Assembly (NCBI GenBank): GCA_013115125.1
Contig: JABANN010000202.1
Location: 1-53,329, forward strand
DNA: 53,329 bases
Reading direction: 5' to 3'
Source of the DNA: Perkinsus olseni
Lineage: Eukaryota
Shown: positions 18,701 to 51,800 of the stretch, piece by piece
Layout: each line of letters opens with the position of its first letter
Numbering within the stretch: the first letter of the stretch is position 1
The notes under the pieces: generated by a model
What the model was told of the DNA's origin: nothing
Database searches by the model: none
Seen by the model: only the letters and a program-made list of their open reading frames with translations
Translations under genes and position numbers: made by a program

Positions 18701-19211
18701 TCCGTGCCTGGTGATCGTCTTTACTTGTGTACCTCAGATCGAGGATCCAACATACTCTGTTGGCCACGGTAGAGTCAATCGTCCGTAATGGTGCGATAAG
18801 ACAGCCGACACTAAAGGAGAGCATCGCTGATCATACAAGAGGTAGGGATGGTAGCATATTATATGATGGTATGAATCAGGTGTAACCTCGGATGGTATGC
18901 TGATTGATGATACCACTGGTATTGGATGGATCGAACCATTCTTGTATGGGTCAGATGTTTTCGGGCTACCTACCGGTGAGAGTCGCCTTCCTCTAGTCTG
19001 CTATTACTAAATATCACCATCAGGCAATGAACTCCATTCAGCTCTTCTACAGTTGTTTCTTTTCTGCGTCGTATTCCGATATACTGACAGTTCAGTGCCG
19101 GGTGTTATTGTTGCGTATTTATTCTCATTCTTCTTCGATTCCATTTGGTCATTTGTATCGAGGCGTACAATAAGTCGGACGAGTATGGTAGATGATAGAT
19201 TCCTACTCTAA
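14779..19211 (+). CDS. TMEM67: Meckelin (ciliary transition-zone protein), multi-exon
   Basis: Cys-rich N-terminus; CNCLANLCVMNLY; VSAWRMLFIGNELNE; FVDVCSLANISV/LDEPLHGWYIHGKAPSGKAD; C-terminal ISRTSMVDDRFLL*. All match meckelin signatures. Confidence 0.9.
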
Positions 19212-19540
19212 CAATCATGTATGAACATACAGCTGCTGCATGCATCGATGTAGTATACGTTAGTGTTCTTGAGTTCAACAGTAGCTATTCAATTATTTCA
19301 TCACCAGTCTGCAGGGGCCGACGCCCCAGTAGTAGTAATGATACCACGGGAAGGGACAGTACACTTCGTCCGTGAGAAGTACTGATGTTTGTCTCCGACA
19401 GAATTAACGGGATATAATCATCATGAGCCCGCCTAAATTCCATATCCTTCCATAATGGTGGGCATTTCAGCACACTCGTAACTCAGCTACTGGTACGATC
19501 GATAGCTTCATAAACACATGACAAAAAGAACAACTCTTTG

Positions 19541-21685
19541 TTACTGATCTTCCGACTTGTACTTTGGAGGGTCAAGTCGAGGGCCAACCAAAGCATACCG
19601 CTTCCTTAGAGGCTTCGCCAACTTCACTTTCAACCTGATAAACCGCCATCACCAGTCATGGATACCTAGAATGGATAAGCACCTTTCGGAGAAGTAGTCG
19701 ATAAGATCTTCACTGGTGAGATATTGCTCAGAAGAAACCTGATGATGAGGAGGCCCTCTGGGATGAAGAGCAGCAACAACTGACCTTAGACGTGCCAGCT
19801 ACACATATCGCCAAATCCTTACTCATATAACCAGCTTCAACGGATTCAATACACGCATCTTCGAGGGCCTGAGCATCACCGATCGGAATCATCATTAATT
19901 GAGGTCTCACCTGAGCGAAGTGTTTGAGCCTGTTATTATTATCAAGGATGGCTCGTTGGTTGAGAGCCCGCGACCAGGCAAATATCGATGCTATTGGATT
20001 GGTTGAAGTCTTCTCTCCCCTCTGAGAATAAATATGAGGAGGCAGCCAGCAGCAGCATCCGCGCCTAACCTGGTACGCTCTGAAATGTCTTGTAACAGTT
20101 CCATGAGCAGCTTCTGACAAAACTGTCTTACCATCCGGGCAGACCAAGATAGACGTCATCAACCCCAGTGAGCCGTATCTAAATATGGCCGATCTGGGAG
20201 TCGAACCCGGGACCGCCGAATGGCTGGTTAGCGGTGATATAACTACCCTTGAGCGACAATGTCAGACTGAACATCTCCGTCATAGTTCTTACATGCCCAC
20301 ACAAAACCACCTTTGGATTTAATGGCCTACAGAATAAAGTTGAGCACATGCCAGCCCGAACTACCACCCTGAGCCCTACTACCTGTGCCACCATATCATC
20401 AATTAAACGATGTTCGTACCACAACCCGGCCTTCTCGAATTGATCCCTAAACATTATAGTCATGACGGATGATGAATCATATCCACATCATCATTGCCCT
20501 ACTTGTATTCATTATCATATAATTGTTGGAAGACGTCTTTAAAGACACCATCATAAACCTTCAGAATAGTGTTCTTAGAGGAGAAGTAGAGAGGCATGCC
20601 CTACACCAACAAAAACTAACATAACTACTATCGGTTCATAGAGATGGTGATGATGACCCTTGTCATTACTACCTGACCCAAGGCGTATGTGAAACAACAC
20701 CTAGCGAAGCTTTCGATGGACCTCTTCGTGTTGTACCTGAAGGAGTATGATGGGTGATAAGATGCGTGTATGCACCCCCATTACATCCCCATAACGACAC
20801 CACCCTCATCCTCCTCCTTGAATTCGAATAACCTCACAGTCTTACCTTCAGACCCGTCATTGGGATGGAATACCAAGTCAACCGTCCCTAACGGATAGGG
20901 AGGTCCCGGGTTCGATTCCTGGCTACACCACCTACCCGGGGTATTATCAGTTTGGAATTGTTCACACTTATATTGATCAGCATGAGCATGACGGCCGATA
21001 ACAATAGGGTACTCCCAGCCAGGGACATATCTAAGAAGTGTCCTCGATGTGAATCGAACCCCAGACCTTTCGATTATTACCGTGGTATATTACGTATTAT
21101 TATCGGAGCCCTGAAGACTGTGCCATCCAAGATGTTACGAATGGTCCCATTGGGGCTCTTCCACATCTTCTTCAACTTGAACTCCTCAACTCGGGCTGCA
21201 TCGGGTGTGATAGTGGCGCATTTAACACCGACATTATACCTGTATAAGTAACACAAGCATACACGTGCGAATGAGGATGAGGAGGAGGAGGACTACTGGA
21301 GGATAGCCTTCGCAGCATCTATTGTTATCTCATCATTAGTTCTATCTCTATTCTCGAGTGATAGATCATAATAATCAATATCCATATCCAAGAATGGGAA
21401 TATCTATTGGAAGGTTCATCATCGTCTCTGCTACCGTTTCCGTGGCGATGTTATTATTACTAATTTATCCTTGATCATTTGCCAGACTATCCTGGTCATC
21501 TCATCGCCATCCAACTCTACTATCGGATTATCTACTTTGATACGTTCATACTCCACCTAATAGAATGATGATGATGATGATGATGATGGCGGTAACCACC
21601 GCCTAAGGCTCCTGTATGATCAATACCCGTGTAAGAAGCTTCCATTCGGTTTTATCGGGCATGATATCATTAGATGCACAACGCC

Positions 21686-21717
<32 letters not shown>

Positions 21718-21861
21718 GCCGCAGAGAAGCCATACTGCTGCTGGTGGTGTGGTGCGATACTACCTAACACCCCTACATCATCGATACACCAATCAGCGTT
21801 GATTACTTGATATGAGGGCAGAAGCCCGAGGGTACCTCAGGCGAGCCGAGGTGGGTATCAT
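19541..21861 (-). CDS. IDH2: NADP-dependent isocitrate dehydrogenase, probably mitochondrial, multi-exon
   Basis: [109 protein letters not shown]. Arg/Gln-rich N-terminal extension. Confidence 0.95.
20179..20246 (-). other. IDH intron containing tRNA 3'-half-like sequence (sense)
   Basis: GTAGTTATATCACCGCT...GGCGGTC-CCGGG-TTCGACT-CCCAG-ATCGGCC-A-TATTTAG. Boundaries fixed by conserved AQG/YGSLG. Confidence 0.75.
20888..20935 (+). other. IDH intron containing tRNA 3'-half-like sequence (antisense to gene)
   Basis: Plus strand TAACGGA-TAGGG-AGGTC-CCGGG-TTCGATT-CCTGG-CTACACC-A follows the canonical tRNA position 32-73 spacing. Confidence 0.8.
21031..21080 (-). other. IDH intron containing tRNA 3'-half-like sequence (sense)
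   Basis: GTAATA-ATCGAA-AGGTC-TGGGG-TTCGATT-CACAT-CGAGGAC-A-CTTCTTAG. Boundaries fixed by NIPR/YVPGW. Confidence 0.7.
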
Positions 21862-22020
21862 CAGAATAATACTTAACCGAGGAGCAACCTTGGCAGGTAT
21901 CCCAACGAAATTCTAGGAAGTCGGAGAAACTACCATGATAGTGAAATGAATGATACTGAGTAGAACGATATTACAAATTGGTTTGATGATGACTATGATG
22001 ATGTCGATGAGAATGGCGTG

Positions 22021-23008
22021 TTAAGTCCGGTAGGGGACAGTGCCCATCCGGGTGGTGTTCTTCTTGTTGTTATGAATTAATACCCTATCATCATCGGATG
22101 TTCGCTCATTCCGACAACATACGAATACTCTCCACCACCGATGAGGACTGTCAACACTCGTCGGTGGTGTTGTACCACTCCCTTCCTGAAATAGTATTAG
22201 GATTATCGATACTGCCAGACGGGGGATACTGCAAGGATACTCAGTCATACTCAAGCATCATACGCAGATGATAGTATTCAACTGTGCATGCCGACTGAGG
22301 ATTGATTTCTATTACCACAGCTCCACCCAGACGCTCATCGTGAGTGAACTACTGAGTGAGGTGTAGTTGATGGCTGTACGGTGCAATATTCACTGATTTG
22401 AACTCCGAGTTATAAGTTCATCACGACTCGGTGATGATTGCTGCCGATAAGAGGTCGAAGATGCCAACACAACTTCTTGCACGATGCTAAGGGGTGTTTG
22501 GCCCTGCACTACTGGCCACTCGTGTGGGCGAAGAGGTCTCCTTTACCAGCGAAGTCTATGATACCCCTCATCATCCCTTGTGGCACATGCCTCTAGTCTT
22601 CAAGAGATTCACCGTTGAACGGTTACCACGAGTGCAACAATTTGAAAACACTTTCCATGTAAGATATCGGGTATGTTGGACAGAGCGACGAGCAAGAAGT
22701 CCGATACCCCTCCACCACACTGTATGGTTATCGGGAAATCCGAGACTAGCAAGACGGATGTGAATGGACCATCAGCCCCGGATATTGATACTTCTAACGA
22801 CGCTTGCATGATACTCCCTTATCATACCCCCCAGTATTACCGTTGTCTTTGCCATTGTTACTCGTCGACTATGGCACACTGGTGTTGGTATATGGACAGT
22901 ATGCAGACTCTCACAAGAGGCCAATTGTAACCTTATCCGAGGTAGTGGTATTGAGCTGGAGGCTTGCTGCTTAGTAGTAGTAGTATCATGGGAAGGGTAC
23001 TTGGTCAT
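22021..23008 (-). pseudogene. Possible decayed intronless gene
   Basis: Protein-like minus-strand segments in shifting frames, broken by stops, with no intron-like repeats. No family recognised. Confidence 0.3.
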
Positions 23009-27034: not shown

Positions 27035-29448
27035 TCACATTATACTACAGGCATTAGGCTGTTGTGAACCTGATAATGATGTCATCATTTCTGTAATGTA
27101 TCCTCCAACATACTGGTCACCTCCAGGAGGCTTCGCTCCGCCACACATCTGCATGATTTCCGATATGTATTGCTGTTGTTTCATTGACGATTCCATAAAC
27201 CTGTTAAAATGACATGAGCCGGGTTCGAACCGAGGATCTATCGGGGTGAATGTACTTCATGTCCCCTTGAAGGGTGGGTGAATGCATCATCCCCGCTATT
27301 GTTAAATCCTCTCCAGTCAAACCCTTGCCACTATCTTCTCTCTCTATAGCAATTGATGCTACACCTTGGGCGAATGGTAATGCATATTGCGCATCGAAAA
27401 CCTCCTCAGGGTTCTCCTCTGACTTCATCATAGTCTTTATCAACCCCAAGCATGCTGTCATACAACTCTGCATGGCTACTACCTGATAATACCACCTACC
27501 CTTCCAACTACACATGGTTTATGCTGCTTACTTGGGATGCTGTAATATTTTTGACTCTCTTCATAACACTAGGTGGAGGTGGTGGTGGTGGCATCTGGCC
27601 TTGTGCTGCTATCATCATCACCTGTTGTTGGAGTACATGTATAATGGAATGATATCATAACTGTAGATGCTGACTACCTGTAGATAGGCTGCTAGATCAC
27701 AACTGGACTTGATCCAAATATTGTGAATCTTGTCGTTATCCTTATACCGTCCATATAAGTCGCCGAGCTCGAGTGGGTTCAATGCAGCTGACAACAGCAG
27801 CAGCAGCAGCAGCAGCAGCATCGGTATCGGTATCGGTATCGGTATCGGTATCACCACCGAGCTTACGATGATAGCGTGAGGCATCCTTCATGGCTTTGGA
27901 GTTCTCCTTGGTATGTTTGACAAACTCCCTGTATGCCGTCTAACACCAGGTCATCATCATCATCATCATCATCCAACAATCACCCTCACTACTACCACCA
28001 CTACCTTGATGCTGATCTTGTGGTGATCAGGCGTCCCCTTAGAAGAGAATAACATGTCATAAAGCTTCGCCCACAACTTCCGAGTGCTTGTATTCTGCTC
28101 GTAAAGTAACTCCATCATCTTCTCAAATTCATCTTCGAGTAACTAAGGTATCGTTCCTATCGAGTACTAGTGCCTGTATGCTGTCCCACTACCAATGGTC
28201 GGCAGTACTCATGCAACTTAGCCATAGTATGAGCCAACATCTCCGCCTCCTGCAAGTTGATGATACACATAAGGCGATAATCACTCTCATCATAATCCTC
28301 ACCTGTTGATAAGCCTTATCATCTTCGAGCTGCTTCTCCATGCGCTGAACTGCCATCTCTAAGTCATCAGCATCAATATGAAACTCAGAATAAACCTTTA
28401 AAGTAACCTAGACAGGTTATCGATAATGTATCACCAATATACCGTTTGTTGTTGTTGTTATTACATGAACCTCAGCGGCAGCCTCCACCACTTTGGGTAG
28501 CATCTCATAGCGCTCAGTTTGCGGTATCTTCTTGAAGGTCGCCACAAGCCTCAAGAACCTGTAGTAAGATTGCTGCTGCTGCTGTTGGCTGAGTGATGAT
28601 GCTGCTGTCTGGACCACCATTACGTTTTATTCATGAATTTATGTATGTTGATGACCTTCTTCCGATCAATACTATCAGCCACCGATTTAGTAGCATGAAC
28701 TGGCGGTACACTAATACCCCCTACGATGATAGACAATAACTAGACGATAGTAGTATTGAGTAGTGCTACTACCTTGCTGTGCTAACATCATCCTCTCACC
28801 AGCTTTATTAACCTCATCATCATCGTACCTGATGCCAAGTATGATGAAGGTTGAAGCGGTGCAGAAGTAGTAAGTACATTACTTCATAGCTAGTGATTGA
28901 ATATCCCTATCATTGATACCCCTCTCTTCTGCTGGGTCCTTCCCTAATAATAATCATCCTATCAACAGCAGCAGCAGCAGCTTGGCAACAGAGGACTACA
29001 TTGTCCAAGATCCAATAGCATGTTGTATAGGTCTTTGAATGTCAATGCCTCGTAACCACCTCCCTTCTTTATTAACTCCCTCGCGAAGTCAGAGATACGC
29101 TTTCGGGAATTAATCTGATGATCATGATGATGATGAGTAGACCATGTACGATACCCAGTATTATCATTACATGATAATCAGCCACCTCATTGAGTAGTTT
29201 TAGGAAATCATCACGATTATTAATAGCATCAGCACCAGTAGTGGTAGGAGCAGGGGGAGGAGTGGTATCATCAAGGGTCTCGGCAACATGGAGGGCACCA
29301 AGCGAGTCGGGTATAATGCCCAAGCCTACTGTACCGTATCTAAAGGTGTCCCGTGTAAGATACAAATAAGGTTGGCCACGACTGATGTAGTGATGTAGAA
29401 TGTTATTATCACTTCTTCATTCTGGCTTGGAATGCTTCAGTTGCATTC
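27035..29448 (-). CDS. Multi-exon helical hypothetical protein ending in a CaaX box (CSIM*)
   Basis: Spliced MNATEAFQARMKK/YGTVGLG...FLRLVATFKKIPQTERYEMLPKVVEAAAEVH...QGDMK/FMESSMKQQQYISEIMQMCGG...QQPNACSIM*. Confidence 0.7.
27201..27255 (-). other. Intron containing tRNA 3'-half-like sequence (sense)
   Basis: GTACATTCACC-CCGAT-AGATC-CTCGG-TTCGAAC-CCGGC-TCATGTC-A-TTTT-AACAG. Confidence 0.7.
27795..27852. repeat. Compound intronic repeat (CAG)n + (ATCGGT)n
   Basis: Seen directly; fills most of a minus-strand intron. Confidence 0.85.
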
Positions 29449-40114: not shown

Positions 40115-42733
40115 TCAGCCAGTTGTAGCGATATTCTCATACTGAGTCGATAGGTGCATCAACTTGTACCTAGTGTATGATGTTGACAGCATAATGATAC
40201 CGCAGTAACTTACAAAACAATGAAGACAAGCAGATGTAGACCCAACAGGTACACTCCACCTGCGATCCTCGTAACTCTATTCCCAGCCATTTGAGTTAAA
40301 ACCTGGACCTGATCAAAGAATAGTACCACACGTCTCCGAAATCATCTCGGGAGTATTACAATCATACGTTCCCCCGTTGGGAGTTTCATCAGCCTTTTCT
40401 CTCTTTCTGAGGTCTTGAAGGTCTCGAATGGTGATAATATAACCCCTTGCATGTATGCTGGCATATACCGCATTTCCACATCATCCTCCCCATCATCCAA
40501 CTCGGATATGATACCTACTTAAGATACAGTATAATGACGACTACAAGGAGACCACTACGTGCTCTTTTGGTAGGAGCCTCGACGCTACTGCTGCTGCCGC
40601 CACTCACAGATTGCCAGTACCTGCCCAATGCATGATGGACGGGCAATAGTAATGACTATTACTTTTTCTGTTCCAGCAGCCGGACATTATCCGCATAAAG
40701 TCTATCACACTTCCTCGACTTCTCCCCAGCCTCCACTCTTAGAGAATCCCTCTCAGTCTCAAGAGCCAATACTCTAGTTCTAAGATGATCTCGTTGTTGA
40801 CGTGTTATATCCAATAAAGATGGTTCGGTCGAATTGCCCTCCTCATTACTGACACCCGCCGCCGGAGTGTACGGTAATGATGATGATGGTGAGGCCTGTA
40901 GCATTAGCCAATGACGATTGAACAACGAGAAGAAGCGTGGAATATGACATCAGCAGTAACCTCCTTCTCCAGCCTATCCAAGGATTCCTTCAACGTCATC
41001 ACTTCACTTTGTCGTCGTCTCAGCTCGTCTGCCATACTGTCAGCTTCAGAGGCCTTCACACGAAGAGGGGCCAACTGAGCTTCCAAGTTCCTAACCTAAC
41101 CAGATACTCTGGCAAGGGCCCCCTGATGCACCACCACCACCACCACCACCACCACCACCTTCCCCAGCAGCATTCGCTCGACATCGGTTGTGCCCTCTGA
41201 GGGGTCCGTACTGTATTCAACGATATTCATCCTTTTTAGCGTTGCTTGGCACCTGACGTTGAAATGGAATCCGCCCAGGTTCAAATCCCAGGTGCAGTAC
41301 TTTCCGAGATCCTCTTCTACAGCCCTCAGCCTCATCACTTCCTTCTCCTGGTGTTCAAGTCTCTCTATCGTCGCTCTTAACTCCTCGGACGCTTGAGATT
41401 CTCTCCGTTGCAGCTCATCAATGACATTCTGTCTCTCATCTCTATCAGCATCGGTCTTCGCCCGTAATGCAGCCAACTCGACCTCGAGTGCCTCACTACG
41501 TACACGCTCTTGCTGGAGGTTCAACTCGACCGTCCTAAGTACAACCAATCGTCGCCAAAGCCAAGCCCCCTCTACTTATTACGAATTGGATCCATCCAAG
41601 TGTTGTGAGCTACTATTCTTCCAGTTGAGTTGGGTCCGCAAAGCCTCTACCTCAGCAGTGAGCCGATCGACATCCTAAACTTGCATCCTGTGATGATGCA
41701 ATGCCAGCAGCTACCCTACTGCAGCTAGTGTCTCATTCTCAGAGGCCAGGGCTTGCAGACTATCCTCAGATACTTTCGAGTATTGGAGCCTCTCCTCCTC
41801 TGCTTTAGCTATTAAATCTTCCATCTCCTTCCTTCGCTGCATTTCCATATCCAACTCGTGCTGTAGCCGTCGTTTATGGTCATCAACTTCCATACCATGG
41901 GCATGGAGTCTTCTATTAAACTCCTCCGCCTGTTCGCTAAGAGCTGCTTTAACCTTCTCATCAGCTTCATCATCCTTAGCCTTGATAGTCTCTCGCAGTC
42001 GGCGTACAGTCACAGCCTGATTGGTGAGAGTAGAGAACTCCGCGTCTAAGTCGTGTAACTGAAGACACATGATCATCACGTCACTGCAGTAGTCCTATTC
42101 AATACCTTCGTAGTAAGCCTGACAATCTCATCGTCCTTCATCCGTATAGCCCGACTAAACTCATCTAACTGTTCCTCACCACCAGTGGCCCCGAGACCAT
42201 CAGCGGCCGACACGGGATCGGGTAGAGGTTTGAGCAATCTGAGGCAGTGATAATACTGATAATGCTTCCACCATTGGCTGAGGACTCACTGGAAGAGTTT
42301 ATTGAAGGAAGTCTCGGCATGTTTAGCTCTCCTACTCAGAGCGTCGATCTCCGATTGATAACTCTTCAACAACTCATCCCACTGTGATGTTGATGATGAA
42401 TCTTCACAGTGCGGCAAAGATACTCCCGAGGAGGTCGCCAATAACCGCCTTTGGAATGCCTCTAAGATCAGCATCCTATGACCTCATACTCTAGTAGCAT
42501 CCCTTTACTCGTGTCCTCTGCAAGATGCTTCTTAGACTCTAGACTACGAGCCCTACACTCGGCCATCATATCCACGGTGTTGGACATCTCCTCGAGTAGG
42601 AGAGGGAAGTTCAAGGACCTGCTGGCATCATGCTAGTCCCCCTATTGCTAACCCCTGGGATTCATTATTACCTCCATAACTCGGTCGGTGTCTGCTCCTC
42701 CTCAGCCACTCTTGGTGATGATGTTACCGACAT
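40115..42733 (-). CDS. CASP: CASP/COY1 golgin (CUX1 N-terminal coiled-coil + CASP C-terminal TM), multi-exon
   Basis: YQSEIDALSRRAKHAETSF...LPDP; EFSTLTNQAVTVRRL; SLLDITRQQRDHLRTRVLALE...LYADNVRLLEQKKYWQS; C-terminal TM YLLGLHLLVF. Confidence 0.85.
41253..41300 (+). other. CASP intron with tRNA-like T-loop/B-box (antisense)
   Basis: Plus strand TTGAAATGGAATCCGC-CCAGG-TTCAAAT-CCCAG-GTGCAGT-A. Perfect B-box, imperfect stem. Confidence 0.55.
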
Positions 42734-43097: not shown

Positions 43098-44293
43098 ATG
43101 GCTAGTGCATCATCTGCTGGAGCTGATAAATTCCTATCCGGATTGGCATTAGCAGCCTTTGGTGCAGGAGGGGTTGGCCTATTCTGCAACACATGCCTTT
43201 TTAATGTGGATGGTGGCCAGAGGGCAGTCATGTGGAATGTAATTACGCCAGGAACTAGACCTGTTTTGTATCTTGCCTGCTCAACCTGTGGATATCTTAG
43301 GTCTTCGGGGGTGTATCTGATAAAATATACGGCGAAGGGACTCATGTGAGGCTCCCGTGGTTCCAGCGACCACATGTGTACTCAATCCAGATCAAACCTA
43401 AGCTCATTCAAACGACCACAGGTAAATTCAACCTGTTCTGTATCCTACATGGTTCAAGCTAAGATACTATGAATCTCAGGTACCAAGGACCTGCAGATGG
43501 CTACGATTCATGTCCGTCTGCTTTACCGTCCTGTCGCTGAGCGTTTGCCGGCCATCCACAAGTCTCTTGGACCCGACTTTGCCGAGAGAGTTTTGCCTTC
43601 TGTTGGGAATGAGGTCGGTTGTTGTTGTTGCTGTTGCCACCCCTTGTGCTGCTACTGTGTATGCTTCGTCAGGTATTGAAGGCTGTTGTTGCTCGATATA
43701 ACGCCGAGCAACTACTCACACAACGAGAAAAGGTATCGCGTGAGATCAGGAATGCTGTAGTCGACCGATGCCAAGCATTCGATGTGAGGATTGAACCGGG
43801 GTCGCACGGTTTGGAAATGTACCTGTTATCAGATTGCCCTGGATGATGTTGCCATTACGCACTTGAATTATGGTAAGGAGTTCGCCAAGGCTATTGAGGA
43901 GAAGCAGGTTGCCGAGCAGGAGGCCGAGAGGCAGAAGTTCGTTGTTGCCAGTGAGTGAACATCATTCAACTGTTCTACATAACATAGTATCCTTCCGTAG
44001 AGACCGAGCAAGAGAGGATAGCCACCGTTATTAGAGCTGAGGGTGAGGCTGAGGCTGCTACTATGATATCCAAGGCACTCAAGGAGCATGGCACTGGCCT
44101 CATCGAGGTAATTATTGTGAAGCATGATGATGATCGGTAGCGATATCATCATCATCGTCGTTGTTAGGTGAGAAGAATCGATGCTGCTCGAGAGATTGCG
44201 GAGACTCTGGCTAAATCACCGAATGTTATGTATCTACCTGAGAAGCAGAATACACTTCTAGGCCTCGGCTCTGCGGCGCAGGGTGGAAAATAA
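43098..44293 (+). CDS. PHB1: Prohibitin (SPFH), multi-exon
   Basis: [94 protein letters not shown]. Confidence 0.95.
43784..43832 (-). other. Prohibitin intron with tRNA-like fragment (antisense)
   Basis: Minus strand TTTCCAA-ACCGT-GCGAC-CCCGG-TTCAATC-C, truncated at the donor. Boundaries fixed by AFD/IALDD. Confidence 0.6.
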
Positions 44294-45724: not shown

Positions 45725-48198
45725 ATGGTGGAAGCTTCCTCGTCATCATCAACTTCACTCGAGGATGAGGGCGCCCGTCTAAGTACGATACAGTCGAGCA
45801 TTTACTTCCAAAGTGTCCCTGCTCTGGATTGAACCGGTAGCTCTTCCTCTTCCCTTGTCAGGAGCATTGAGGGTGCGGGCTGTTGAGTCCAGGATGGCTG
45901 CTGCGTCAGGAGAAGAGGAGGACCCCCTGCCCAGCCGGAAGAGGCAACGTCTTGCAGGTAACTTTTGAATTTACTAAATTGTTGTACCGCGATAGACGAC
46001 TGGTCACTCAGCCAATCCTGATCACCATCCATCATCGTCCTCCTCGTCATCCTCTTCTGGACTGTCACCAGTGAAGATCGAGGATGAGTCTGGGCCTCAC
46101 CACCGGGAGGGAGAGCTTGCTCAGGACCCAGCAACCTCCTCCTCATCAACATCGAGCAGTGTAAGTTATGGTATGTCGTAGCAAAAGGACTGGTCTGTTC
46201 TCAGATCCCTGCTGCTGCTGCACCACCTTCCCAACCGGAGGCGGCTGTTGTTGATATCCTCGATTCTTCTGAAGATGAGGGGCCGGTGGACGTATTGGAG
46301 GTATCATCGGATTCTGACGATGATGAAGACGATGATGAGCTGGAAGCAGTAGTGGAAGGTAGTAGGGGACGATACCCGCTCAGTGCTCGGCGGCGGTTAG
46401 CCTATAATGCTGCTAGATCCCATTGAAGTAGACCTCCTCGATGATGAGGACTTCGAGGCTGGCGCAGCACCAATAGCGATCACGGAGGACGAGGCTAGCG
46501 AGGGGGGGCATCATAGCGATACTGACCACAATGATGTCGAAGATGATGATGTGGAGTTCGTAGGGGAGACCAGAGCAGCAGGAGCCAATTGGGGCTTGCG
46601 ATGGCAACATAGGAACAGGCTGGATAACAGCGCTTTGCGGGTAGTTTCCGCCACGCCATCCTCCCCTTCCTGCGCACTTTTCAGGCACTCGATCGTCATC
46701 TCGGCTTCAACCCTCCTGTCGGCATTCAAGACGTCTTCGGTGCCCCTCCTCCTCCTGTCGCCCATCCATTGCCTAATGCCTTCATCAATCGGGCGAACAG
46801 GGAGAGGCTCAGAGCTGGGGTGATATCTCGTGCAGTGCCAATGGATGTAGTGTAGATCATTTCAGGGCGTTAGGAGATATAACGGAGGTAACTTGCCTCA
46901 CTTGCGAGATCTTGATACTCCTCAACCGGGCGAGGGTGATCGGCCTCTTTATGCAGTTCGCTATCCCCGAGGGAACCGTCAACGATGTGAAGTAAGGCGC
47001 CATTGTCTCCTCGCTACACCCCAGCTCTGTTGTAGGTGTGCCGCCGCAACATATCACTCAACTCGACTGTTCTCTGTTACCGCAGTAGATTGATGGTCAA
47101 AACTGTTCACGTCGAATGCGCCCCCAATAGCCGAGCGATGTGAGGAGGATAACCCGTCTATCATCATCCACACTCATCAAGCGCAGGTACAGGCCAGCGG
47201 ATGTCGGAGTTGATGTTATCTTCCAGGACGCAGTTGCTAACGATGAAGCGGAAGTAGATCGGGTAGGCAATCGAAAGGATCCGGGTTCGATCCCCGGCCA
47301 GCAGATCTTTCAACAGGCCATTAGTACTTTGAGTCATCTGAGAAGCAGGAGGCTGATGGATCGTGAAGGGTAGGTTCGGAGGTGCAGGCCTGCTGCATGC
47401 TCACCCACCCCGCCTTGTTCAGGGAACTTCGACGTCGACGCAACAACAGACGCCAAAACGGCGGTGATCTCCTCTTGGATATTATGCGGATACCTCCACA
47501 ACAGCCGCAGCAGCCGCAGCCGCAGCCGCAGCCGCAGCCGGTGATGGAGGATCCTGGACGAGTGCTTGGCTTCGACAATGGCCTTCATGAGGGCCTACTG
47601 GTAGGGAAGCGTCCTTCTACGACCACCGATAATTATATGTTGCAGGCTTACAATTGGTTGTTGCCGGGAGCAGCGGCAGTGGCCGGGTTTGGGCCACCGG
47701 GGCACCATATTAACATGTACCACTCATCGGTGGCTGAAGCCCTCCTGCGCGGTCGGATGCCCCAACGTGGCCCCCCACCTCCATCGATACCAGCAGTACG
47801 AGGGCGAGGGGCTGCTCTTCGGTATTGCCATCTATCATTCTATCAGATGCTGAAAAAGTGTACGAGAGTTGTCATCAAGAAGGGCGACGTCGACCCCGAC
47901 ACGAATGCCTTCCGAGAATGTGAGGTTGGCTCAATCTCGGGTATCCCTTATGCTTGCTTCAGGTACGATTTGTTTGGAGCCTATGAAGACCAGACAGGCC
48001 GTTATTGAGTTGCCTTGCGAGCATCGGTGGGTTCTTGTAGGACGAGGTTGCATTTATGATGTTGTATTGGGAAGGTACCATCGAGGATGTATCGAGAAGT
48101 GGTTCAAGACGGCGTCCACGAAGGATCCGACCAATGTTCGATGCCCTCTGGACAAGAAGTCACTGTTTGAGATGCTTGGAGAGCCCGTCCCTGGCTAG
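45725..48198 (+). CDS. RING-H2 E3 ligase-like protein with acidic/SIM-like low-complexity region, multi-exon
   Basis: C/TICLEPMK...LPCEH/RYHRGCIEKW...CPLDK; VVDILDSSEDE, IEVDLLDDE, VEFVGE (SIM-like); basic RKRQRL. Confidence 0.75.
45811..45842 (-). other. tRNA-like fragment inside intron 45783-45861 (antisense)
   Basis: Minus strand AGCT-ACCGG-TTCAATC-CAGAG-CAGGGAC-A-CTTT. Confidence 0.45.
47263..47316 (+). other. Intron containing tRNA 3'-half-like sequence (sense)
   Basis: GTAGGCA-ATCGAA-AGGAT-CCGGG-TTCGATC-CCCGG-CCAGCAG-A-TCTTTCAACAG, with a perfect 5-bp T-stem. Confidence 0.8.
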
Positions 48199-48815: not shown

Positions 48816-51800
48816 TCATGTTGATGCAGTAGAGGTGGTATAGTCTCCTCGCATGCGGCGGCCTTTCGGATCGAACAGGCAACCCGCCGTCACTTTCACT
48901 GGTATAATCAGCGGCTTGCCGTCCCCACCAATCGGGTGGACGCGAACGGTCCATTCCCCTGAGAGCAAACGATCCATTGGAGTGGCAGCCTTCGGTAGCG
49001 GTACCTTGTTCTATGTAGGACTTATCGATGATTGCTCTATCGTCCGAGATGAGGCACAGCCCGATCGGGCATTCCAAGACTGTTGAGTATCCGGCGGAGT
49101 TCAAGTAACTATACGCCACTGATGAGGGTCATCGAGAGGTTGTCACATACCCGACTAGTTTGTCGTTCCTATAGACTAGCTCAGCGCCGTGCCCCCACCA
49201 TGGCAGCTTTCCGAGGTCTACATCCGGGCACTGGGCCTGAAGTATTCAGTGAGGTCTTTCCAGCGAATCACGAAGCCCCACCTGCAGTGATAGGAGCCTT
49301 TTCTTCAGCCCTCCTGCCTCCTTTTCTCTGATCAAAGCTGCCTTGCCGATGAAGTCAACGTCTGAGGAGGAAGACCTCATTGGGGCGGCATCCCGCAGCC
49401 CCGCTTGTCTTTACCTGTTTTGAGCTTGCACGCAAAACCCAGGCCGACTTGTAGGACACTTTCCATCGGTGAGAAGTCATGACCATAGTGAAGGAAGCGC
49501 TTCTCCATCCTTAATGAGTCGAGCATGGCTAAGGAGCCCACCAACCGCTGTTCGGAAAAATGAATGGACGGCGGCAGACTAACGGCGCAACAACCCACAG
49601 GTCGGATGCTCCCTCCGGACATGATCCCGTCGAACAGCTTCTTGGCCCCACTCTTCTGAACGTGGAGCTCCAAGCCCAGCTCTCCGACATAACTGCGATG
49701 GAGCAGCATCAGCACAGGATGGGCGAGGGGGACTTACGAGACACGCAACGCTCGGCAGGAGACTCCTGCAAGCATCAGATCATCCTTCGCCCTCGACAGA
49801 GGTATGGTCGAATGGAGATCTATTCCGTCTCCGAGAGAGGATAACAGCTCGAAGCTCTTCGGACCCATTACCGATAGGACCTGAGGATGGGAGCTTGACG
49901 AGAGGCCTGACGTGTGGGTGCAGTAGTACGGCGATGTCGTCGGTGACATCATTGATAGTAACTCCCTTCATGCCTCGGCTTGCCGTTGCCCAGTGTAGAT
50001 GATCTTTTATCATCTCGGGCTGGTTGGAAGTGGTAGTAATATAAAAGCTGTCCTCTCCTAGTCGAGTGACGGTAAAGTCAGCGAGAATACCCCCGCGTTC
50101 GTTGGCCATGGCCGTGTAGACGATGGTGCCGATTGGTCGATCAATGTCAGCTGTACAGACCCATTGGAGGAGCTCTCCTGCGCCATCACCCTCGACCAAC
50201 AACTTGCCGAAAGACGACATGTCAATAACACCGACGTGCTGCCTAACAGCTCGGGCCTCTTCCTTCATAGCCTCGAACCACTCGGTCTTGCCCAGGCCCC
50301 AAGAATGAGGATATTCGTGGCGCGCGACATTGGTCGGGAGATAGTAAGCAGCCCTCTCCCAACCGAAGCCTTCAAAGAAGCGTGCACCATGGCGTTGATG
50401 CTCCTCATGAAGGGGCAGGAGGCGTCGATTGCGGCCACTGTGCAGCTGCATGTAGGGATAGTGGACTCCATACCTCGAGGGCTGACAGATGCTGACAACA
50501 TTCTCGATGGCTACTTACATGATGCCATACTCCTCTGCAGCCCTCCCCTCACACCAGTCAGGGTCCTCAGCGAGCGCTGGATACCAACGATTGACGTCAG
50601 CTGCTACGAAGTCGTCCTTGAAGCTCCTAGGATACCCATGGAGGATCCACTCGGCATTCGCAAGGCCAGCACCGGCGCCACATTGTATGCCCTGGGAATT
50701 GAACCCGGTACCTACGCCAGGGGATATGGGCTCCTCCTTCCCATGCATCGACGGTCCTCAGAGATGGTTACATATGTGGACATTATCAGTGCCAAGAAGC
50801 CTGCCCATGATTGGTGCGGTATCACAACTATGCGTGTCGGGGCCGTGTAACCAGCGCTTTATACCCACCTCCTGCAAGGCGGGAACGGTCTCCAAGGCAT
50901 CTGAGGTCGATGATGGGGACGAACAGGAGGCAGTGGCAGTACGCTCGAGCCACTCGCCGGCTTTGTCTATGCTCTCCGGGAAGACTTCATGCGATATATC
51001 TCGTGGCGCCTACGGGTGATGACGATACCACGACGGAGCTGGTGCTGGTAGATGCTACCGCTCCTGACGCGTTCCTTTCCTTCACATCTGGTGGGAAGTG
51101 GACCTCGGGGTTGGATTCGAAGACTCCAACCATAAAACCGCCAACCTCGAGAAGAATAGAGGGTGGGGTGTTGTAGTCACAAGAAGCCCTACCTCAGGCT
51201 TTAGGTAGAACTTGTTGAGGTAGTCTCGGACAACAGGCAACTTATTGGAAACCCCTTCAAGTCTATCAAACACCACATACCTGATCATGAGGGTCCTACA
51301 AGCAGTGGTGCCAGAAGCCTTACTGATGCGGCACAACGGCAGCTGGGAGGATGTCGCCTAGGCCCAGCTCCTTGACGATACCCTTACTCCATTGACCTGA
51401 CCTCACAATGACGACGCCCATCACTTGCTGCAGCCTGTCACCTGCGCAGATGATGATGTTATTCATGTGCACCAATGCCCCGCTGTCAAGTTCAACAGCA
51501 TGGGCTCGGCGACCATCCCTCACTATACGACGAATGGCCGTCCTCTCCAGTAGATGGGCCCCTTGGGCTCTCGCTCGAGCTGAGAAGGGGCCGTATTGTT
51601 GTTGCATCGCGGTGGTCGGTACTAGCCATCGCCATGGTAACGTCAGCTGGGTTGACGATACCGTCCTCTGAGGTGTATATACCACCATAAACTCCGGTAG
51701 TATCCAAATATGGATGGATCTGAGAATGGTGCGGTATTGGAGACAGCTGGGAAATACATAAATATCTTCCATCACGTGGTTGAGTGTATGAGAGGGGTAG

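Follow-up and report, generated by a model that had tools for sequence, protein, structure and literature searches.

Lone B-boxes that belong to no tRNA gene have been described as ETC sites in S. cerevisiae, as COC sites in S. pombe and as ETC loci in human and mouse. In the available parts of these reports, conserved bases continue for about 10 nt 3' of the B-box, numbers can reach thousands, and the yeast and human ETC sites mostly occupy intergenic DNA flanked by divergent genes. According to the accessible text of PMC3395662, a yeast ETC site consists of a lone B-box extended by 10 bases on its 3' side and serves as a boundary and tether, and more than 1,865 human ETC sites have been reported. 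Yeast tau138 contacts G47 upstream of the B-box and tau91 contacts downstream bases conserved among ETC loci (PMC11724288, available part), and the human structure has tauB modelled over bp 55-89, the B-box occupying bp 65-75 (10.1101/2023.05.16.540835, available part). Protist B-boxes outside tRNA genes are known from Dictyostelium rDNA, where solo B-box and A/B-box loci were proposed as Pol III factor sites (PMC5391098, available part).

The class of motifs described here, from Perkinsus olseni, resembles ETC and COC sites in being lone B-boxes without a tRNA gene, in an estimated number that reaches thousands and, in part, in its conserved 3' bases. Unlike the ETC sites described in the parts of the literature available, it lies mostly in 45-70-nt introns, clusters within genes, keeps upstream tRNA-like bases and a T-run, and is weak in the yeast ETC bases G68 and G71. 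The Dictyostelium loci differ in that they have A-boxes or no further tRNA likeness and stand on rDNA, not in introns (PMC5391098, available part). Introners, or introner-like elements, are alike in bringing related sequence into many introns at unrelated positions and filling most of them; compared with their description in the available text of PMC11282704, the class has no near-identical copy families, no terminal inverted repeats that were noted, no significant target duplication, free orientation and no fixed ends. Dada transposons of Perkinsus marinus share the genus and a tRNA-gene association with the class, but are multi-kilobase DNA transposons inserting at the A-box (PMC3706591, available part). 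No published description of such a class in Perkinsus was found in the open-licence literature.

The window analysed (the whole stretch of 53,329 nt) is one whole contig. A NADP-isocitrate dehydrogenase (IDH) gene, whose closest proteins carry the name Perkinsus olseni in their sources, lies on its minus strand at 19544..21767. Four sequencing runs were compared at this gene, and transcript-like contigs were obtained from two of them (X7 and X8). One contig from each skips 13 CT..AC segments of 42-72 nt between 19635 and 21460, including 20888-20935; neither run is recorded as RNA, and because all 13 segments are skipped, both contigs represent spliced transcripts. At the focal segment the joint is identical in X7 and X8 (20886->20935, skip of 48, CT..AC on the plus strand). 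The focal intron (20888..20935, minus strand, 48 nt, phase 1) is a real spliceosomal (U2-type) intron with GT-AG ends that is removed from the mRNA and splits the Gly codon of ...DNTPG/TVDL. None of 10 aligned public IDH protein models retains it, and its exon flanks, when aligned to other IDHs, show no additional residue where they meet. Its length is 3n and its frame contains no stop, as a preceding sequence-only reading had pointed out; a 3n length is ordinary in this gene, however, being found in 8 of the 13 introns.

The same reading had proposed recent intronisation, which finds no support: the intron is present in both diverged DNA runs. These DNA-like runs, X14 and X16, show no joint at the focal intron and both bridge it; an X14 contig runs without a gap across 20778-21244, where it has 11 differences, and the intron therefore predates the separation of these lineages. 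Among the 40 of 109 isolate differences listed, none falls inside the focal intron. No relative of the focal 29-mer within 3 mismatches was found in the genome either; since the class profile predicts just 0.4 neighbours of the focal copy, this shows only that the motif has no close copies. Recent family expansion was rejected, as the focal copy has no sibling. Two other IDH copies in the genome, adjacent paralogs 65-67% identical to the window IDH (L126 and L127, G000:C2812), are intronless. A metagenome scan for IDH gave 26 loci, five of which were examined; the one multi-exon eukaryotic IDH among them (L239) is without the focal intron, and absence from this single distant gene says little on intron age.

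The tRNA likeness of the focal intron was assessed using an HMM built solely from the 3' parts of this genome's tRNAs. An extended B-box motif corresponding to tRNA positions 44-73 (variable loop, T arm, 3' acceptor strand and A73) was located at 20901..20930 on the plus strand, antisense to IDH, with 18.3 bits. On controls, the same HMM reached at best 9.4 bits in 5,000 shuffles and 6.0 bits in 1,891 reversed introns. The likeness is therefore beyond chance, and it is limited to positions 44-73. On the plus strand the elements AGGTC, CCGGG, TTCGATT, CCTGG, CTACACC and A are read as originally described; of the tRNA 3' half claimed from position 32 to 73, the part from 44 onward is supported and the anticodon part is not. 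The supposed anticodon loop TA-ACG-GA has A, not U, at position 33. TAGGG has a single possible partner, which takes half of its bases from the exon; the two form a 6-bp hairpin with a 5-nt loop across the 3' splice site (20885..20901, plus strand) that is probably due to chance: one hairpin of this type was found among 110 class members, and permutation predicts 1.2. The anticodon arm was thus rejected as part of the class, in which positions 30-43 hold no information and no hairpin excess. The splice sites had also been placed at the fragment ends; the donor site actually lies 5 nt beyond A73.

A perfect B-box core, GGTTCRANYCC (positions 52-62), occupies 20909..20919 on the plus strand, so that a B-box consensus stands outside any Pol III gene. 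Upstream of it, neither a match to the 5'-half HMM nor an A-box pattern was found, and the first TTTT follows 719 nt downstream. With no A-box and no nearby terminator, Pol III transcription of the site is unlikely. ARAGORN found no tRNA gene in the window, and Rfam gave no tRNA match in 19000-22500 at E<=10. All five T-stem pairs of the focal copy are intact, and its acceptor strand has no upstream partner. Taken alone, the focal copy is compatible with a decayed tRNA copy; the argument rests on the class.

The donor was searched for in a library of 36 tRNA types assembled from the genome, in which Phe, Tyr, Met and some isoacceptors are missing. A tRNA-Arg(ACG) donor had been suggested, and the genome does contain Arg(ACG) genes (32 pattern matches); these match the focal motif at only 17/25 bases over positions 43-67 and 24/42 over 32-73. 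Comparison with the host tRNAs, proposed as a check, thus gave Pro(CGG) and not Arg(ACG) as the closest (24/25 and 30/42, respectively). Because Pro(CGG) almost equals the class consensus, this best match is not diagnostic; Pro(CGG) was rejected as donor, and none can be named.

Two further IDH introns carry the motif, both spliced and both in sense orientation on the minus strand: a 68-nt intron at 20179..20246 (B-box 20207-20197, 17.2 bits) and a 50-nt intron at 21031..21080 (B-box 21060-21050 with one mismatch, 9.7 bits). The other ten of the 13 gave no HMM match. In public IDH models P0001 and P0037 the acceptor falls within the motif of the 20179-20246 intron, by which five residues are added, whereas both transcript-like contigs use the acceptor at 20179; the motif can thus supply a cryptic acceptor.

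Genome-wide, the B-box pattern gave 2,996 matches against 355 for a backwards control. In 400 kb picked blind to the motif, 9 of 39 matches lay within tRNA genes; extrapolating from these two results, lone B-boxes are estimated at about 2,000, some 60% of them in introns. The focal intron is therefore one member of a class and not a unique recent event. Most intron calls rest on a gene model trained on 839 kb (about 2% of the genome) and not seeded with motif introns. Of the 13 IDH introns it predicted 10 exactly (8/10 seeds and 2/3 non-seeds, the focal intron among the latter). For a second gene with seven motif introns, comparison with public models gave three exact agreements, three calls inside longer annotated introns and one sharing the donor. 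The motif is present, in either orientation, in about 3% of the short introns sampled. Targeted loci included, 120 matches outside tRNA genes comprised 45 intronic sense, 32 intronic antisense, 33 intergenic and 10 exonic copies. In the blind 400 kb, 18 of 30 non-gene matches fell in predicted introns, which make up 20% of bases (p=1e-6; p=0.007 against non-coding DNA only). Elsewhere in the window, introns predicted by the gene model only carry the motif in sense at 27201..27255 (minus strand) and 47263..47316 (plus strand) and in antisense at 41253..41300 (minus strand). A predicted intron with a B-box motif at 43784..43832 is of uncertain host strand, and a further B-box motif at 50690-50715 (minus strand) is of uncertain intron assignment.

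Orientation to the host gene is free (36 sense, 29 antisense, p=0.46), and information is limited to positions 44-77, alike in sense, antisense and intergenic copies. Motif introns are clustered: in genes with one such intron, the motif recurs in 102 of the 1,213 remaining introns, against 27 of 1,074 introns in the blind sample (8.4% vs 2.5%; the pairs are not independent), while clustering in the small blind sample alone is not significant (p=0.49). Neighbouring motifs are not copies of each other, sharing at most 19 of 32 variable bases, and nearest neighbours within the sample reach at most 31/35. Local copying within genes was rejected, same-gene pairs sharing 15.1 vs 13.9 of 32 bases and 24 of 54 being on the same strand. 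A single gene at L168:1900-4450, presumably Na+/H+ exchanger-like by motif, holds at least seven intronic motifs of mixed orientation.

Strong intron bias and clustering in genes are atypical of described ETC sites and would suit another reader of a selected motif, be it a different DNA-binding protein or a machinery that recognises an RNA signal in the excised intron or pre-mRNA. Free orientation and lost stem pairing argue against an RNA signal, the core is an exact B-box and a B-box-binding subunit is encoded in the genome; we consider this explanation very unlikely.

tRNA pseudogenes and tRNA-derived SINEs have a tRNA-like B-box, a discriminator and a T-run, as does the class. In contrast to these, the class lacks a 5' half and an A-box (0 of 106 upstream regions) as well as a body and tail, and has stems at chance level and an intact core. 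In short introns, 38 of 1,279 matched the 3'-half profile and one the 5'-half profile (sensitivities at 10% divergence of 0.75 and 0.56, respectively). Intronic cores with 0, 1 and 2 mismatches numbered 21, 8 and 5, against 0, 0 and 3 in the control (flanks scored by a gene-only matrix), counts that fit about 4% decay in simulation. At that decay, 2.76 of the three outer T-stem pairs should be kept; the observed value was 1.63 (n=79), below even a simulation of 40% decay (1.91). In a filtered set, from which 18 of 110 non-exonic matches were dropped (the focal copy, look-alike picks and gene-like pseudogenes), 1.28 pairs were kept vs 1.33 after permutation (n=92). Positions 49 and 65 stay C or G and are independent in the elements (p=0.81), being fully coupled in genes (p=2e-8). 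G59 is carried by one of 92 elements but by 9 of 33 genes (p=7e-12), a scarcity that copying from the gene pool would not give. CpG decay was rejected as the cause of lost pairing (CpG observed/expected 0.83 in introns, 0.93 overall). The pattern of the class is not that of decaying tRNA copies.

These results bear on an account of neutral capture, which keeps the idea of the sequence-only reading and gives it an older date: reverse transcription or break repair would have put 3' pieces of tRNA genes or pre-tRNAs into exons, where they turned into introns and now decay neutrally. In its favour, many 45-55-nt introns consist mostly of the motif, the class has the discriminator and the T-run, 5' halves would be missing if priming started at the 3' end, the focal exon flanks join other IDHs cleanly and L239 is without the focal intron. 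Neutral decay can nevertheless produce neither a core decay of about 4% together with chance-level stems nor the scarcity of G59. Moreover, there is no significant target duplication (junction repeat 2.19 vs 1.88 nt, p=0.08), no phase bias of motif introns vs other introns (p=0.97) and no significant 3n excess (3n stop-free share 20% of 74 motif introns vs 13% of 1,524, p=0.08); intron ends are not fixed relative to the motif and spread over about 20-25 tRNA positions; and the focal copy has neither donor nor sibling. We consider this account quite unlikely.

Several features nonetheless indicate tRNA-gene ancestry and would be compatible with mosaic copying. TTTT follows position 73 in 37 of 106 members vs 5 in a control window, and column frequencies of the elements track those of tRNA genes (r=0.82). 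The two halves of the motif, left and right, are linked internally but assort independently of each other; a few tRNA-like types account for the left halves, and in the set including look-alike picks halves are slightly closer to real genes than column-shuffled ones. In 19 of 139 cases a whole tRNA gene overlaps a predicted intron, and shrinkage of such intronic genes offers a possible route to motif introns. All this would suit copying without host function, either by a chimeric tRNA-derived mobile element or by short gene conversions from hundreds of tRNA genes, which would refresh the core and reshuffle left and right halves; the tRNA-gene-rich sister species (PMC3706591, available part) points the same way, as do tandem B-box arrays and degenerate tRNA units in the genome. 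Tracts from the gene pool, however, would bring G59 (9/33 genes) and T50, found in 1/92 and 9% of elements, respectively, and the focal copy has no near-identical sibling. Homology of 11-15 bp is, in addition, short for gene conversion. Such copying therefore appears rather unlikely.

By our mapping, the DNA modelled with human tauB, which includes 10 bp ahead of the B-box and 14 bp behind it, is equivalent to positions 42-76, and the conserved span of the class thus matches the DNA held by the tauB module, as far as the available part of that study describes it. The genome encodes a GTF3C1/tau138-like protein, the TFIIIC B-box-binding subunit, in a multi-exon gene (L215) that public annotation lists as hypothetical. 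Its B-block and extended winged-helix domains score above Pfam cut-offs; an initial match to the B-block alone was marginal and was also obtained in prokaryote controls, the identity being settled by further searches. Upstream A-boxes are absent from the class by HMM (0/106), and 5 vs 1 were found by a loose pattern. Downstream, the class keeps G70, C72 and A73, of which the focal copy has only C72 and A73. The two-speed decay of core and stems, seen within this one genome, supports conservation beyond neutral expectation.

On this evidence we favour, at little better than even chances, a reading of the class as selected ETC-like TFIIIC sites of probable tRNA-gene ancestry that are housed in mini-introns. 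The focal intron would be an ordinary short GT-AG intron with a lone extended B-box inside, a putative DNA site for TFIIIC tauB without A-box or Pol III unit. Its raw material was probably tRNA-gene DNA, in which selection would have kept the protein-read bases (core 52-62, upstream 44-50 and downstream 70-73) and ceased to maintain the RNA fold. With a genome this compact, 50-nt introns may be where a 34-bp site can be accommodated within a gene, and the likely role would be chromosome organisation, as a boundary or in SMC loading. Against the ETC-like reading, the T-run belongs to Pol III terminators and is given no role in TFIIIC function in the available parts of the literature consulted, and the focal site has no T-run, G68 or G71. 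The latter two bases are invariant in the eight yeast ETC sequences, by our reading of the table in the available part of the source, and occur in only 33% and 47% of the class, respectively.

If the sites bind TFIIIC, they would constitute a large intron-embedded ETC system in an alveolate and give some introns a direct DNA-level function, and the chromosome-organising role of TFIIIC could be tested next to dinoflagellates. If tRNA fragments seeded the introns, they would be an intron source for which no description was found in the open-licence literature. A bolder extension, which we regard as doubtful, is that about 2,000 TFIIIC sites build Perkinsus chromosome architecture and that many mini-introns exist as their containers: tRNA fragments would have entered coding DNA, been made spliceable, and been kept to place TFIIIC, and via TFIIIC SMC complexes, inside genes. 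In this sister group of the dinoflagellates, gained introns would then have been kept because they serve DNA binding.

Other tRNA-like DNA was observed in the genome. Whole tRNA genes lie within predicted introns of 100-180 nt in either orientation (L090:5857-5930, L067:1469-1542, L025:1500-1573 and others). Tandem tRNA gene arrays with many degenerate copies and anticodon-mutated variants occur at L022, L035, L036, L045, L046 and L079-L085. A tandem array with a 169-nt period and subunits of about 85 nt was found at L208:380-1060 and L213; every subunit has a B-box-like motif and unpaired stems, and a related copy is present on another small contig. Finally, at L210:70-830, a gene that we take to be U6 snRNA-like precedes two degenerate tRNA-like units of full length; these lie on the opposite strand and may be external promoter elements of the A/B-box type.
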